A stretch of 64,000 nucleotides of DNA. Origin: Bacteroidales bacterium (GTDB lineage Bacteria > Bacteroidota > Bacteroidia > Bacteroidales > F082). The translations under genes were made by a program, and so were the position numbers. The stretch spans positions 6,185-70,184 of the forward strand of contig WFNG01000055.1 in NCBI GenBank assembly GCA_015488735.1. Direction: 5' to 3'. Below, piece after piece: positions 5,207 to 39,231 of the stretch. Numbering within the stretch: position 1 is the first letter of the stretch; every line of letters starts with the position of its first letter. The notes below the pieces were generated by a model. It worked only from the letters and a program-made list of their open reading frames with translations, was not told where the DNA came from and ran no database searches.

Positions 5207-5278
5207 TAAAGGAATGTTTTTCCTTTTCTTTTTGCTGAAGCGGAAGACATGATACCTCTTTATGTTTATGAGATTAAT

Positions 5279-5286
5279 TATCTTTG
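5279..5286 (+). promoter_or_regulatory. -7 promoter box (TATCTTTG)
   Basis: TAnnTTTG upstream of the VOC-DUF89 operon. Confidence 0.55.
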
Positions 5287-5332
5287 TCAGCCGGCATCCC
5301 TATGGGATAGCCGGCTTTAAAAAAATGCATCT

Positions 5333-5713
5333 ATGACCCTGAATCATATCGGAATAAACATTGCCGACACGCACGAAATACAGTATTTTTATGAGGATAT
5401 TCTGGAATTCGTTCCGGAAAATAATTTTCCTGTTCCTCTTGAAATTTCACAACAATTTTTTGGAATTGATAACAAAACGGATGCTCATATTGTTCAATCT
5501 GAAGATTTGTTGCTGGAGCTGTTTGTATATGACAAGCCGTTAAACACGGGATATGCGCATTTGTGTTTGGAGGTGAAAAATAGAGAAAAAATTGCCCGGA
5601 AATGTATCGAAAATGGCTATCCTGTTATGCGTAAGGAAAGAGAAAAGGGAGATTTGCTGTTTGTTAAAGACAAAGCCGGCAATGTGTTTGAACTAAAAAA
5701 TAAAAGGATATGA
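5333..5713 (+). CDS. VOC/glyoxalase-family protein
   Basis: LNHIGINI ... FYEDIL ... LELF ... HLCLEV ... FVKDKAGNVFEL, with His/Glu metal ligands. Confidence 0.85.
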   Translation: MTLNHIGINIADTHEIQYFYEDILEFVPENNFPVPLEISQQFFGIDNKTDAHIVQSEDLLLELFVYDKPLNTGYAHLCLEVKNREKIARKCIENGYPVMRKEREKGDLLFVKDKAGNVFELKNKRI

Positions 5714-6555
5714 AAACCTATCTGGATTGCCTGCCTTGCTTTGTGGAACAAGCGCTGCGTGCGGCACGAATTGCTACCAACGATGACAAAGTGATTAAGC
5801 AGGTACTCGATGAAGTTGGTTGCATGATTAAAGATACGCCCATGGAGAACACACCTGCTGAATCAGGAATCCGGGTTTATGGGAAGATACGGGAGATTAC
5901 CGGTGTGGCAGATCCTTACCGGGAAATAAAACAACGCCACATTGCCGAAGCCAGGGCGCTGTATCCCGAATTGGAGAAAATGGTTGCAAAAGCAAAAGAC
6001 CCGTTACTAACGGCTATTCGTATTGCTATTGCAGGAAATGTAATTGATCTTGGTATCAACAAAACTTTTAATCTGGTAGCTGATATAAAAGAAATTCTTA
6101 TAAAAGATTTTGCTGTTTTTGATTACGAAGCTTTTAAAAAAGCATTGTATAATGCTGAAAAGGTGTTGTATATAGGTGATAATGCAGGGGAATCAGTTTT
6201 TGATAAGTTGCTTATAAAACAGTTGAATAAGCCTGTAAAATTTGCTGTCCGCTCACAGCCAATCATCAATGACGCAACTATGGAAGATGCGCTTGCATCA
6301 GGATTGGATGAAGTAGCTGAATTAATTGACTCAGGCAGTAAGGCACCAGGAACTATTTTACGACATAGTACTCCGGAATTTATGGAAGTTTACCAGAAGG
6401 CAGACCTTGTGATCAGCAAAGGACAGGGAAATTATGAAGGTTTGTCGGATGAAGATCGCCCCATATTCTTTCTGCTAAAGGCCAAATGCCCGGTAATTGC
6501 ACGGGATATGGGGGTACAGGAAGGAGATATTGTCTTAAAAGGTATAAATTTGTAA
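5710..6555 (+). CDS. DUF89/ARMT1-like damage-control phosphatase
   Basis: N-terminal CLPC, IAGNVID, YIGDNAGE and SKGQGNYE motifs; ATGA overlap with the VOC gene. Confidence 0.9.
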   Translation: MKTYLDCLPCFVEQALRAARIATNDDKVIKQVLDEVGCMIKDTPMENTPAESGIRVYGKIREITGVADPYREIKQRHIAEARALYPELEKMVAKAKDPLLTAIRIAIAGNVIDLGINKTFNLVADIKEILIKDFAVFDYEAFKKALYNAEKVLYIGDNAGESVFDKLLIKQLNKPVKFAVRSQPIINDATMEDALASGLDEVAELIDSGSKAPGTILRHSTPEFMEVYQKADLVISKGQGNYEGLSDEDRPIFFLLKAKCPVIARDMGVQEGDIVLKGINL

Positions 6556-6654
6556 AATCTTCAGAGAGATACTTTTAGACTGTAAAAATATTCTGTCGTG
6601 TGACGGATAAAAAATAATACATTGGTTGATAATTAAATACAAAATTATTAAGAG

Positions 6655-7098
6655 ATGAAAACAAAAATAGGAATTATCATTTGCGATCGTTATCGGAATT
6701 GTGCCGGCGGAAAATGTTTTCGCTCCCTGCAGAATCGCGAAGGTGCTTTCAGTATTTATCCCAAAGAAGATGAAGTGGAAATTGTGGGTTACACAAGTTG
6801 TGGCGGCTGCCCCGGCGGAAACATCGAATATGCACCCGAAGAGATGAAAAAAAATGGGGCAACCGTCATCCATTTTGCCACAGGGTTCGTGGTGGGCTAT
6901 CCGCCCTGTCCGTATATCGACCATTTTAAACGTTTCATAGAAGAAAAATATACTATGAAAGTGGTCGTGGGGACGCATCCCATTCCCGAAAAATATTACC
7001 AGACGCACAAGGCACTAAAAACCTGGAATACCCCTCAATGGCAGGAAATTATCAAGCCAACACTGACCGACGAGAAAACACGGATTGAATATAATTAA
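6655..7098 (+). CDS. CGGC-domain protein (putative Fe-S/metal-binding)
   Basis: IGIIIC....CAGGKC, SCGGCPG, PPCP, VVVGTH. Confidence 0.9.
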   Translation: MKTKIGIIICDRYRNCAGGKCFRSLQNREGAFSIYPKEDEVEIVGYTSCGGCPGGNIEYAPEEMKKNGATVIHFATGFVVGYPPCPYIDHFKRFIEEKYTMKVVVGTHPIPEKYYQTHKALKTWNTPQWQEIIKPTLTDEKTRIEYN

Positions 7099-7333
7099 AT
7101 GTGTTTTATACACTTATTAGCAGCTTTAAACTGACATAGTAACCATGAAAAATAACCATTCATCTTAATAATTTTTCAGGAACTAAAAAAACTATTTATC
7201 CACAGATATTTGCCAGATACAAACTCAATACATAAACATATAAGAAGTTGGCCAAAATGTAAAGAAAAAACAGAAGTCTTATCATTAATAGTTTAATATG
7301 TAAAGATGTTTTGGTTTTCTTGTCAATTGAACG

Positions 7334-7341
7334 TATCTTTG
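7334..7341 (+). promoter_or_regulatory. -7 promoter box for the Fic gene
   Basis: TATCTTTG 38 nt before ATG 7380. Confidence 0.55.
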
Positions 7342-7379
7342 CAAAGAAAATCAAATAATCTATACATAAAAGGTGTAAG

Positions 7380-8441
7380 ATGTTAAAGAAATTACCAATA
7401 GAAAAAGACATTGAAACAAAAAAGGTTCTTAAAAAACTTGCTTCTACACATAGGGCATTAGCCGAATTAAAAGGAATTGTAGCGACAATTCCCAATGAGA
7501 ATATGTTAATTAACACTTTGGGGATTCAAGAAGCAAAAGACAGTTCAGCAGTCGAAAATATCATTACAACCCATGATGATATTTATAAAGCAGAATTAAA
7601 TCTTGGTAATATTAAATCATTAAATGCAAAAGAAGTCCAAAATTATATTTCTGCCCTAAAGAAAGGATTTACTTTAATATCGAAAAACAAGATCCTTACA
7701 AACAATGATATAATTGCAATACAATCTGAATTAGAAAAGAACAATGCGGGTTTTAGAAAACTTCCGGGAACTGCTTTGAAGAATGCAACAACAGGAGAAA
7801 CGGTATACGCACCGCCACAAGAATATTCTGAAATTTTAGATCTGATGTCAAATCTGGAACAATTTATCAATGATGAAACTCTGTCAGATTTTGACCCGTT
7901 AGTAAAAATGGCTATAATTCATTACCAGTTTGAAAGTATTCACCCATTTTACGATGGAAACGGGCGAACAGGGAGGATTATTAATGTATTGTATTTGGTT
8001 ATGCAAGATTTATTAAATCTTCCAATACTATATTTAAGTCGGTATATAATTTTGAATAAAGGAATGTATTATAAGTTATTACAGGAAGTTAGAGAAACCG
8101 ATAATTGGGAGAACTGGCTGTTATACATGCTTGATGCTGTTGAACAAATTTCGAAAGAAACAATAGTATTGATAGCGAAAATACGAGAATTAATCTTTGA
8201 ATATAAAAATATTCTTCGCAGTAACTATAAATTTTACAGCCAGGATTTATTAAATAACCTGTTTAAACACCCTTACACAAAAATTGAATTTATTGAAAGA
8301 GATTTGGGCGTTTCCAGAATAACAGCGGCAAAATATTTAAATGAATTAGCAAAAAGCGGATTACTGAAGAAACAAAAATTCGGGACAGGAAATTATTATA
8401 TAAATGAAAAATTAATGAACTTATTAACGATGAAGGAATAA
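7380..8441 (+). CDS. Fic-family protein with C-terminal winged-helix domain
   Basis: Intact catalytic motif HPFYDGNGRTGR, N-terminal EAKDSSAVENI, C-terminal SRITAAKYLNEL HTH; visibly AT-rich. Confidence 0.92.
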   Translation: MLKKLPIEKDIETKKVLKKLASTHRALAELKGIVATIPNENMLINTLGIQEAKDSSAVENIITTHDDIYKAELNLGNIKSLNAKEVQNYISALKKGFTLISKNKILTNNDIIAIQSELEKNNAGFRKLPGTALKNATTGETVYAPPQEYSEILDLMSNLEQFINDETLSDFDPLVKMAIIHYQFESIHPFYDGNGRTGRIINVLYLVMQDLLNLPILYLSRYIILNKGMYYKLLQEVRETDNWENWLLYMLDAVEQISKETIVLIAKIRELIFEYKNILRSNYKFYSQDLLNNLFKHPYTKIEFIERDLGVSRITAAKYLNELAKSGLLKKQKFGTGNYYINEKLMNLLTMKE

Positions 8442-8450
8442 CACTTTGGC

Positions 8451-8578
8451 TGACAACGGCTCATAGTGCATGCCGCAAATAATTGTAAATATGACGATTA
8501 AGCATTAAAGGAAAATACCGGTTAATAGAAAAATAAAACATTAAACTGCGGCATGCACCATAGCCGCACACGTTAGAA
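8451..8578 (+). repeat. Imperfect inverted repeat with attC-like architecture
   Basis: AAC at 8455-57; arm cggctcatagtgcatgccgca 8457-8477; arm tgcggcatgcaccatagccg 8547-8566; GTTAGAA at 8572-78; 12-bp perfect core and one extrahelical base. Confidence 0.55.
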
Positions 8579-8588
8579 AATTGTAATT

Positions 8589-9524
8589 ATGTATAAATAT
8601 CTTTTTGGCCCGGTGCCTTCGCGCAGGCTGGGCATGTCGCTCGGCGTTGATTTGGTGCCGCATAAAGTTTGTTCGCTCAATTGTGTTTATTGCGAGTGTG
8701 GACGAACCACAAATTTAACCGTTGAGCGAAAAGAATACATCCCGTATGACGAGGTAGTCAGCGAAATTGACCACTATCTTAAGCATAATCCCAATCCTGA
8801 TTATTTTACCTTTTCCGGTTCCGGCGAACCGACTTTGAACAGCCGCATTGGCGATGTGCTTCATTTTATCAAATCCAACAGCAAAGTGCCGGTTGCTGTT
8901 CTCACCAACGGAACATTGTTTTACGATAAGGCTGTCCGGGATGAGCTTCTCGAAGCCGATGTGGTTTTGCCTTCGCTGGATGCTGCTGAAGAGCTGGCTT
9001 TTCGCAAAATAAACCGCCCGTGGCATAAATTGAACATCTCTGAATACATCAGGGGGCTTGTTGATTTCAGAAATGAATATAATGGCCAAATCTGGCTGGA
9101 AGTGCTCATTATTCCCGGTATGAACGATAATCAGGAAAACCTGAATGCTTTGAAAGACGCTTTTTTGAAAATTCATCCGGATGAAATACAGCTGAACACA
9201 TTGGATCGTCCCGGTGCGATAGAAAATATCAGGGCTGCCACGCGTAAGGAGTTACAGGATATTGTGGACTTCTGGGACTTGCCGCAGGTGAAAATCATCG
9301 CGGCAGCACCGGATCGTAAAAAAATTGTTTCCTACCGTGATGATACGGAATCGGCCATATTGGAAACCATCAAACGCCGTCCCTGTACGCTGGAAGATCT
9401 CCATAAAATTCTGGGACTCCACATTAACGAAATCAATAAATATCTTGATGTGCTTGAAGACGAGAAAAAAATTCTTTCCGTAAGGGAAAAGAGGGGCGTG
9501 TTTTATAAGATTAATTCATTGTGA
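8589..9524 (+). CDS. Radical SAM protein (COG0731-like), paralogue 1
   Basis: FGPVPSRRLG.SLG, CSLNCVYC (CxxxCxxC), TFSGSGEPTL, LTNG. Confidence 0.92.
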   Translation: MYKYLFGPVPSRRLGMSLGVDLVPHKVCSLNCVYCECGRTTNLTVERKEYIPYDEVVSEIDHYLKHNPNPDYFTFSGSGEPTLNSRIGDVLHFIKSNSKVPVAVLTNGTLFYDKAVRDELLEADVVLPSLDAAEELAFRKINRPWHKLNISEYIRGLVDFRNEYNGQIWLEVLIIPGMNDNQENLNALKDAFLKIHPDEIQLNTLDRPGAIENIRAATRKELQDIVDFWDLPQVKIIAAAPDRKKIVSYRDDTESAILETIKRRPCTLEDLHKILGLHINEINKYLDVLEDEKKILSVREKRGVFYKINSL

Positions 9525-13352: not shown

Positions 13353-14576
13353 CTATTCAAAGGAAAGTATAGATTTCCGTATAATTTCCACTGCCTGCAT
13401 TAATTCTTCTTCCGTGATAACCAGTGGCGGTGCAAAACGGATGATGTGGTCGTGGGTGGGTTTTGCCAGCAAACCGTTATCTGCCATTTTCAGGCATACA
13501 TCCCAGGCCGTTTTTCCATTTTTGGGACGGATAATGATAGCATTTAACAAGCCTTTTCCACGAACTGTTTCAATCATACTTGATGAAATATTTTTCATCT
13601 CTTGTCTGAAGATCTTACCCAGTCTTTCTGCTTTTTCAGCCAGATTTTCCTCCTTGATGACTTCTAAAGCAGCCACGGCTACACGTGCGGCAATAGGATT
13701 TCCACCAAAAGTTGATCCGTGTTCTCCGGGTTTGATGGTCAACATGATATCGTCATCGGCCAGTACGGCAGAGATGGGATAAACGCCTCCGGAAAGTGCT
13801 TTGCCAAGTATCAACAAGTCCGGGCGTACACCTTCATGATCGCAAGCCAGTAATTTTCCGGTACGGGCAAGGCCTGTTTGCACTTCATCGGCAATAAACA
13901 ATACGTTTTTTGCTTTACATAAATCGAATGCTTTTTTCAGATAGCCTTCGTCGGGAACCATCACGCCTGCTTCGCCCTGAATAGGTTCCACAAGGAATCC
14001 GGCTACATTCTCATCTTGCAGGGCTGTTTCCAGTGCTTCAAGATCATTGTATGGAATCGTAATGAACCCTGGTGTGTAAGGCCCGAAATCTTTTTTTGCT
14101 TCCGGGTCGGTGGACATGGAAATGATGGTGATGGTACGTCCGTGGAAATTATTTGCGCAGACAATAATTTTGGCTTCGTTTTCCGGGATTCCTTTTTTTG
14201 TGTACGCCCATTTACGACAAAGTTTCAATGCAGTCTCGTCACCCTCGGCACCCGAATTCATAGGGAGTATTTTGTCGTAGCCAAAATATTCTGTTATGTA
14301 TTTTTCATAAACGCCCAGCGAATCGTTGTAAAAAGCCCTTGAAGTAAGGGTTAATATCTTTGCCTGATCTGTAAGTGCTTTAATAATTTTAGGATGGCAA
14401 TGTCCCTGATTTACAGCTGAATAGGCTGATAAAAAATCAAAATATTCTTTTCCTTCAGCATCCCAAACCTTTGGGCCTTTACCTTTGGCCAAAACTACCG
14501 GTAGCGGATGATAGTTGTGTGCTCCGTATTTATCCTCCAGTTCCATAGCCATTTTTGAAGTGAGTTTCTCTGACAT
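13353..14576 (-). CDS. rocD: Ornithine--oxo-acid aminotransferase
   Basis: [43 protein letters not shown] lysine in [17 protein letters not shown]. Confidence 0.95.
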
Positions 14577-31978: not shown

Positions 31979-32054
31979 GGTGGATGTAGCTCAGTTTGGT
32001 TAGAGCATCGGATTGTGGTTCCGAGGGTCGTGGGTTCAAGTCCCATCTTCCACC
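31979..32054 (+). tRNA. tRNA-His(GTG)
   Basis: G-1 plus GTGGATG acceptor, D arm GCTC/GAGC, anticodon arm TCGGA-TTGTGGT-TCCGA, T arm GTGGG-TTCAAGT-CCCAT, discriminator C; CCA not fully encoded. Confidence 0.95.
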
Positions 32055-38249: not shown

Positions 38250-38321
38250 TGATCCCGCCGGGATTCGAACCCGAATCATCAGAACCGGAATCTGACATTC
38301 TATCCGTTGAACTACGGGACC
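38250..38321 (-). tRNA. tRNA-Arg(CCG)
   Basis: Reverse complement GGTCCCGTAGTTCAACGGATAGAATGTCAGATTCCGGTTCTGATGATTCGGGTTCGAATCCCGGCGGGATCA; anticodon CCG. Confidence 0.95.
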
Positions 38322-38828: not shown

Positions 38829-38833
38829 TTTCG

Positions 38834-39231
38834 TGGAGCTGGAGGGATTCGAACCCTCGTCCAAACATGGAACCAATAAGCCTTCTACATGCTTAGTTTG
38901 TCATTGGTTGTCGGGAAATACACGGGGACAAACACCCAAAATATTTCCTTAGCCTCTTAAATTTCATTTTGGCTGCGAGGCAATGCCAAAACTATTCTGA
39001 AGTTGCTTGCGACTCGTTATCAGGCCGGAATCAGAAATCTCCACCTGCGAGCCGTCTCGTCCCCCGTAACTTCGACGGAAGATAAAGCCAATCTACTAAA
39101 CTTCGATCAGGCTGCGAGAGCGTAATTAGGTTCGCCAAATAAAAAAATGTGTAACGCGGTTTTACGGGTTGTGTTACCTTGCCCGGCATGCTTACCTATC
39201 CATTCAAATGCTGTCAAAACCAGTCAGCCCC
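38834..39231 (-). ncRNA. ssrA: tmRNA; tag peptide (A)GEPNYALAA
   Basis: 5' GGGGCTGACTGGTTTTGAC, 3' GAGGGTTCGAATCCCTCCAGCTCCA; tag ORF ggc gaa cct aat tac gct ctc gca gcc tga at 39136-39107. Confidence 0.95.

Follow-up and report, generated by a model that had tools for sequence, protein, structure and literature searches.

A 131-bp hairpin that follows a Fic protein gene in a Bacteroidales genome is very probably the recombination site at the end of a 1325-bp Fic gene cassette and works like the attC site of an integron. It was analysed within a 64-kb stretch of contig WFNG01000055.1 (64,000 nt, hereafter the window), for which a first-pass annotation had described the hairpin as attC-like. 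The hairpin does belong to a conserved family of sites that have AAC...GTT ends and bound cassettes, and arrays built from this family carry the crossover signature of integron-type recombination sites. More tentatively, we suggest that Bacteroidota own an integron-like capture system, which would combine a co-oriented Xer-like recombinase, lacking the IntI domain and bearing an extra N-terminal domain, with AAC/GTT sites that have different spacers; the Fic cassette of the window would be a stray product of this system. The features concerned are listed in Table 1.

Table 1. Features of the Fic cassette, of its terminal hairpin and of the flanking genes, in window coordinates.
Feature	Position	Strand	Remarks
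CGGC-domain gene	6655-7098	+	left flank of the insertion; Pfam PF08821
AT-rich filler, 148 nt	7099-7246	.	lies between the CGGC stop and the cassette start
Upstream core-type junction GTTGGCC	7247-7253	+	Fic-cassette homology starts here
Fic gene cassette, 1325 bp	7248-8572	+	leader, Fic ORF and terminal hairpin; last base is the G of GTT
Cassette leader	7254-7379	+	three TGTAAAGAAAA-like boxes and a 30-nt imperfect inverted repeat
Fic protein gene	7380-8441	+	Pfam: Fic_N, Fic and SoFic-like C-terminal domains; stop TAA 8439-8441
Hairpin site, whole	8448-8578	+	131 bp; begins 6 nt past the Fic stop
Left box (R''-equivalent) GGCTGAC	8448-8454	+	alignments A1 and A4
Left unpaired spacer AAC, 3 nt	8455-8457	+	alignment A4
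Left arm as read, CGGCTCATAGTGCATGCCGCA	8457-8477	+	
Left arm in the family register, GGCT-C-ATAGTGCATGCCGCA	8458-8477	+	20 nt
Loop, 69 nt, AT-rich	8478-8546	+	homologous among family members
Right arm as read, TGCGGCATGCACCATAGCCG	8547-8566	+	
Right arm in the family register, TGCGGCATGCACCATAGCC	8547-8565	+	19 nt
Right unpaired spacer GCACAC, 6 nt	8566-8571	+	alignment A4
Right box (R'-equivalent) GTTAGAA	8572-8578	+	GTT invariant in 28/28 copies
Radical-SAM gene	8589-9524	+	right flank of the insertion; Pfam PF04055

The main parts of the hairpin could be read from the sequence just as the first-pass annotation had given them, namely the arms, the 69-nt loop, the 12-bp perfect core (8466-8477 / 8547-8558), the extra C, the GTTAGAA and, 10 nt downstream of it, the next ATG. 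The left end needed correction. The AAC, said to lie 10 nt past the Fic stop, lies 13 nt past it, and the family alignment places this AAC in the 3-nt spacer instead of in the left box, the box column being occupied by GAC; the same alignment extends the element from the proposed 128 bp to 131 bp. Within the left arm, the bulged C is nucleotide 8462, and A 8465 faces C 8559 (an A/C mismatch). The core 12-mer occurs in the 64-kb window as these two arms only, with 0.18 matches expected by chance, and the stem folded as DNA reaches -20.4 kcal/mol (z -2.6), a value equalled by 3 of 200 shuffles. At the right box, 6/7 positions fit the core GTTRRRY, and the crossover would fall at G8572|T8573, leaving TTAGAA on the host side. 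The left box of the window has GAC where the AAC column of the family is near-invariant, GGCTAAC being found in L011 and in the Fic cassettes of L037 and L040. In vent metagenomes, A (not G) accounts for 89-100% of the depth at position 8452 in the three runs with coverage. A 13-nt repeat, AATTGTAA(A/T)TATG, that is present in the loop and at the radical-SAM start was treated as a chance match.

The Fic gene had also been proposed to be a mobilised cassette, and comparison with relatives bears this out. In six contigs of relatives (L031-L036), the site is empty: the CGGC stop is followed by 26 nt and then by the radical-SAM ATG, from which it follows that the window carries a 1.46-kb insertion. 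At the place matching 8572-8578, the empty site reads TTAGAAAC. Radical-SAM orthologues are 74-93% identical among the rows listed, and those whose surroundings were looked up (88-93% identical) have the CGGC gene directly upstream. The GC content is 0.26-0.36 over about 7100-8580 versus 0.42-0.50 in the flanking genes, a low-GC island that is accounted for by the cassette.

The left limit of the cassette was set by homology. At the DNA level, the window, L037 and L040 become homologous exactly at G|TT(A/G)G(C/T)CAAAATGTAAAG, which corresponds to window position 7247, and upstream of this GTT the window does not align to the Fic cassettes of L037 and L040. The junction reads GTTAGCC... in L037 and GTTAGTC... 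in L040, and a vent metagenome contig shows the Fic cassette start as GTTAACC..., in yet another context. This limit identifies GTTGGCC as the true start and the cassette as 7248-8572, with a putative crossover at G7247|T7248. The first-pass annotation had noticed GTTGGCC as a possible but weak upstream junction; it was right about the presence of the motif and wrong about its weakness. One vent contig counts against a G|TT limit, as it tracks the window up to GT (7248) and then has A instead of T. The reverse complement of GTTGGCC agrees with the window's own GGCTGAC at 5/7 positions and with the GGCTAAC of other copies at 6/7.

Fic homologues that are 84-93% identical fill the best 120 rows of 8000 scored, some of them source-named Ignavibacteria or Chlorobi, and this widely shared Fic gene travels as a cassette. 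Its neighbourhoods are unrelated: it lies between hypF and hypD in L038, elsewhere in L039 and L040, and inside a large array in L037. The family model gave no match at the lone Fic cassettes of L038, L039 and L040, whose sites are truncated or decayed. The leader holds TGTAAAGAAAA-like boxes at about 7258-7268, 7299-7308 and 7340-7350 and an inverted repeat at 7297-7326 / 7339-7368, all of which are conserved in the Fic cassettes of L037-L040; these elements are probably the cassette's own promoter and operator, and are perhaps bound by the C-terminal winged-helix domain of Fic. The filler between the CGGC gene and the cassette is missing from the empty sites and shows no homology to other Fic-cassette contexts, and vent metagenome contigs break in it at 7154-7159, as well as at 7248. 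It was rejected as a decayed copy of the site, the best family-model score being 9.1 bits (E 0.11) and a sequence profile finding the element alone (forward E 8.7e-32; reverse-strand palindrome E 5.7e-4). It could be the scar of an older cassette, which no model supports.

Further copies of the site occur in other Bacteroidota, the 64-kb window itself containing only one. A two-core pattern run on one genome per species recovered these arms amid unrelated genes in two metagenome-assembled genomes (MAGs), one of Flavobacteriales and one of Bacteroidetes. A metagenome scan with the pattern gave 16 matches, of which L007, L008, L010, L012, L015, L019, L020 and L021 are unrelated and L009 is the window sequence; the others are further family copies. 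Taken together, the two scans show identical arms and conserved flanks in unrelated contexts in Flavobacteriales, Bacteroidales and other Bacteroidota MAGs. The layout of the family is yAAC, 3 nt, GGCT(C)ATAG..., a 69-71-nt AT-rich loop, ...CYATAGCC, 6-7 nt and CGTTRG. A covariance model built from seven copies then detected further diverged copies in L011, L013 and L016, located 1.1-1.8 kb apart on the same strand, in which the stems are preserved through compensatory changes. Across the 28 aligned copies, 86.9% of stem cells pair, versus 19-34% with slid partners; 13 stem pairs have changes on both sides, and the covariation score of 0.31 (versus 0.107 for shuffled alignments) was reached by 0/500 shuffles. 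AAC is present in 26/28 copies. The bulged C is found in 11/28 copies, including that of the window, and conserved A.C mismatches take its place elsewhere. As in the window, the site is placed right after an ORF and in the orientation of this ORF in L001, L003, L011, L013, L016 and L037.

The family is also visible in hydrothermal-vent metagenomes (runs X1-X4), where the assembler word depth over the element (8394-8624) is about 50-90 times that of the Fic and flanking genes and the flanks diverge at the box boundaries. This excess depth indicates that the site family is very abundant in vent communities. A small ORF in the loop was discarded as a coding feature: its frame is lost in L003, and in the window it stops after 5 codons. 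In L001 (6278-6370, minus strand), L011 (7992-8084) and L018 (1309-1401), an ORF of 28-31 codons starting at TTGTAAATATG covers the loop and the right arm.

The crossover signature comes from arrays of such sites. The chromosome of Ca. Sulfidibacterium hydrothermale (CP083760.1; loci L037 and L041) carries at least 20 same-strand copies, one per gene or gene pair, Fic included, and two-copy arrays are found in L011, L013 and L016, with no recombinase on these contigs. In L037, reverse-complementing the GTT box of one copy (n) gives the AAC box of the next (n+1), with a mean of 6.72/7 matching positions and a perfect match (7/7) at 13/18 junctions; controls give 4.74/7 for a copy's own adjacent GTT box and 4.77/7 for non-adjacent boxes. 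When the four variable positions are considered, 67/72 match versus 33/76 with the copy's own adjacent core, a result reached by 0/20,000 permutations. Crossover at G|TT produces this complementarity between neighbouring boxes, and the complementarity of a cassette start with its own AAC box is a hallmark of integron cassettes.

A candidate enzyme lies at the head of the arrays. To the left of the L041 array are dnaE and the gene of a 387-aa tyrosine recombinase, which is co-oriented with the cassettes and whose stop lies 44 nt before the first cassette; this cassette begins with GTTATGC, the complement of the GCATAAC of the first site. The recombinase is 33% identical to IntI1 and lacks the 43-residue IntI insertion. 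It scores 206.8 on the integron integrase model TIGR02249, under the cut-off of 265, and 240 bits on the NCBIfam XerA model, over the cut-off of 220; its closest solved structures in the PDB are archaeal XerA, and its N-terminus carries an additional domain of about 95 aa. Homologues of the same build are encoded on Chryseobacterium, Rufibacter, Fulvitalea and Pontibacter plasmids, each heading a series of co-oriented small genes. The Chryseobacterium, Rufibacter and Pontibacter plasmids have 60-80-nt AAC...GTT hairpin sites with 3/6-nt spacers that follow the same complementarity rule, 7/7 junctions being perfect in Pontibacter (L047); sites were seen between genes of the Fulvitalea plasmid as well, the rule being read only in the other three. 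The 64-kb window contains no Xer- or IntI-like ORF. The first-pass annotation had described a lone unit with no integrase nearby, which holds, with a single site copy and no recombinase within 64 kb. It had also proposed a search for an intI-like recombinase: none is present in the window, and the candidate that heads the arrays of this site family is Xer-like, not a canonical IntI.

From these observations, a mechanism can be proposed for the cassette 7248-8572, which was inserted between conserved housekeeping genes, one on either side. A single strand, in all likelihood the bottom one, would fold into a hairpin in which the AAC box pairs with the GTT box at the base and a second helix forms above an asymmetric unpaired spacer (3 nt / 6 nt). 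A tyrosine recombinase would then cut at G|TT, and a cassette running from TT... to ...G could leave as a circle and enter a different GTT site. The enzyme would be the adjacent Xer-like recombinase without the IntI insertion. The window copy is a lone cassette, and its GAC in place of AAC and the lack of a recombinase within 64 kb make it probably a stranded copy, and possibly an inactive one.

The sites described here resemble in several respects those of integrons, both of the mobile class 1 type and of the sedentary type found on Vibrio chromosomes, where they are the VCR repeats of ~128 bp. Integron attC sites are imperfect palindromes of 57-141 bp located directly after the cassette ORF, as is the window site. 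Their boxes, RYYYAAC and GTTRRRY, are those of the family, although the window copy has GAC. Crossover at G|TT, with a cassette start complementing its own inverse core, is found in L037 and in the Pontibacter arrays, and cassette presence or absence bounded by core sites is found in the empty sites and in the homology limit at GTT 7247. As in integrons, long same-orientation arrays adjoin a tyrosine recombinase, the sites are alike within one array, the cargo is rich in toxin-antitoxin and defence-like genes, and lone cassettes exist outside arrays. There are also differences. The spacers are of 3 and 6 nt, as opposed to 5 and 5-6 nt in ten class-1 attC sites; the extrahelical base, in class-1 attC a feature of the inner L''/L' helix, is not universal in this family; and the 69-71-nt loop is conserved in sequence. 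Whereas a complete integron has an adjacent IntI with the additional domain, the L041 recombinase lacks the 43-residue segment and further differs from IntI in its ~95-aa N-terminal domain and its co-orientation with the cassettes.

A covariance model of class-1 attC, built from ten sites of plasmid integrons, recovers class-1 sites and gave no match (E<=10, filters off) in the window, the family loci or the plasmid arrays. As this model also misses its own 112-nt training member, its failure was not taken as a refutation, because of its length limit and narrow training set. Among the categories of IntegronFinder, CALIN or single attC resemble the window (one site and one cassette, with no integrase nearby) and L011, L013 and L016 (two sites each, with no recombinase on the contig); membership of these classes depends on a hit with the IntegronFinder attC model, and the likeness here is one of layout. 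Compared with Xer/dif systems (XerA, XerC/D), the array recombinase is closest to XerA, but the substrate of Xer systems is one dif site, 28 bp long and double-stranded, and they do not head arrays of hairpin-bounded cassettes.

The arrays could instead consist of ordinary attC sites served by a canonical IntI encoded elsewhere, with the Xer-like gene as a coincidental neighbour or a dif-type resolvase, which we consider unlikely. The boxes (AAC/GTT), the rule that the cassettes follow and the layout of the arrays are indeed all classical, integrons have been detected in Bacteroidota, and the stretches inspected comprise only 22 kb (L041) and 9 kb (L037) of one chromosome and 15-19 kb of four plasmids. 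However, no IntI1-like ORF was found in any of the loci analysed, and the spacer geometry is unlike that of class 1. In addition, 5/5 recombinase homologues are located directly upstream of an array or small-gene run and are co-oriented with it, and in L041, L044, L045 and L047, where the intergenic sequences were read, the start of the first cassette matches the AAC box of the first site.

A more distant alternative, to which we give very little credence, is that the hairpin acts chiefly as RNA, on the sense strand within the Fic transcript (as a terminator, a stem for RNase III or other processing, or a regulator of the downstream gene) and that its spread reflects selection on RNA. Two observations speak for it: in all contexts the hairpin is preceded by a stop codon and followed by the start codon of the next gene, and the window copy folds strongly as RNA (-38.9 kcal/mol, z -4.0, with 0/200 shuffles as good). 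Furthermore, attC sites can also act as terminators. Yet an intrinsic terminator has a short GC-rich stem, a small loop and a T-run, whereas the loop here is of 69 nt and no T-run is present past 8565; the promoter and terminator scan gave nothing at the hairpin, and Rfam gave no match there (at gathering thresholds over the whole window and at permissive thresholds over 7000-8700). Elsewhere in the window, Rfam identified a tmRNA gene (38831-39231, minus strand) and two tRNA genes (31980-32054, plus strand; 38250-38321, minus strand). An RNA role would also leave unexplained the insertion and deletion of GTT-bounded cassettes and the complementarity between cassette start and AAC box.

The mismatches within the stem point to the other strand. 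Among the non-Watson-Crick stem cells, 63 are A.C when the top strand is read, and hence G.T on the bottom one, versus 12 that are G.T on the top strand, counts that come mostly from two inherited alignment columns and are not independent events. The sense strand thus has the conserved mismatches as A.C, and they become G.T only on its complement. In 22/28 copies it is the bottom strand that has the better fold, by 2.6 kcal/mol on average. This asymmetry of mismatches and folding fits a bottom-strand DNA substrate, as proposed above for the recombination site, and argues against a sense-RNA role as the main function.

It is least probable of all that the hairpin is an end of another kind of mobile element acting as a single strand, be it a MITE, an element of the IS200/IS605 type with its HUH transposase or a REP-like repeat, with Fic as a passenger: the element is high-copy in vent metagenomes and TTAG lies at both insertion edges (7117-7120 and 8573-8576), recalling the insertion of IS200/IS605 elements beside a fixed tetranucleotide, but such elements have hairpins at both ends, whereas the cassette has one at a single end and no matching structure at its left end, the copies are all in one orientation with one per cassette, no HUH transposase was seen in the arrays, and complementarity between neighbouring cassettes is foreign to these elements.

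Integrons are the textbook case of gene capture through single-strand hairpins, and their definition rests on the special domain of IntI and on one attC geometry. If the domain-less adjacent recombinase does drive the arrays, the additional domain would not be universally required for cassette recombination at hairpin sites. The IntI-specific insertion is considered essential for integron function in the literature, and in the part of it that we covered we found no description of arrays headed by a domain-less recombinase. Surveys list Bacteroidota among the integron-bearing phyla, yet at very low frequency, the phylum being almost devoid of integrons. Standard detectors that rely on IntI and attC would miss a Bacteroidota system of the kind suggested here, and the scoring of the phylum as nearly integron-free could be due to this. 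Mobile cassettes, often with defence-like or toxin-like genes, would then form a large reservoir that is overlooked in an abundant phylum, and the origin of integron integrases from Xer-type enzymes would become directly testable in cultured Rufibacter, Pontibacter and Chryseobacterium.

The cargo of the cassettes in L037/L041, L011, L042 and L043 is rich in defence-like and toxin-like genes, which include an OLD/AAA_15 ATPase, a caspase C14, a PemK toxin, Fic, PRTase-CE, a reverse transcriptase, GmrSD with an SMC-like ATPase and a MutS-domain-V ATPase. The OLD-like cassette of L042 and L043 has a single site copy and lies inside defence islands of other Bacteroidota, in neighbourhoods with no recombinase. 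L037 contains a five-fold repeat of a near-identical cassette of ~519 bp that has no forward ORF (5262-6975, 8154-8312 and 13743-13901); in four of these cassettes, gene callers put a 75-aa minus-strand ORF across the hairpin, which is probably spurious. Between dnaE and the recombinase gene, L041 carries GC-rich tandem repeats (7020-7180; units like GCCCGCCTGGCTACGTAGTCGGACAG). Finally, an IS110-family transposase gene is located inside the Pontibacter array (L047, 9874-11229), with GTTGTAT before it and ATACAAC after it. As the complementarity rule holds across this IS, it inserted into a cassette and not at a junction.
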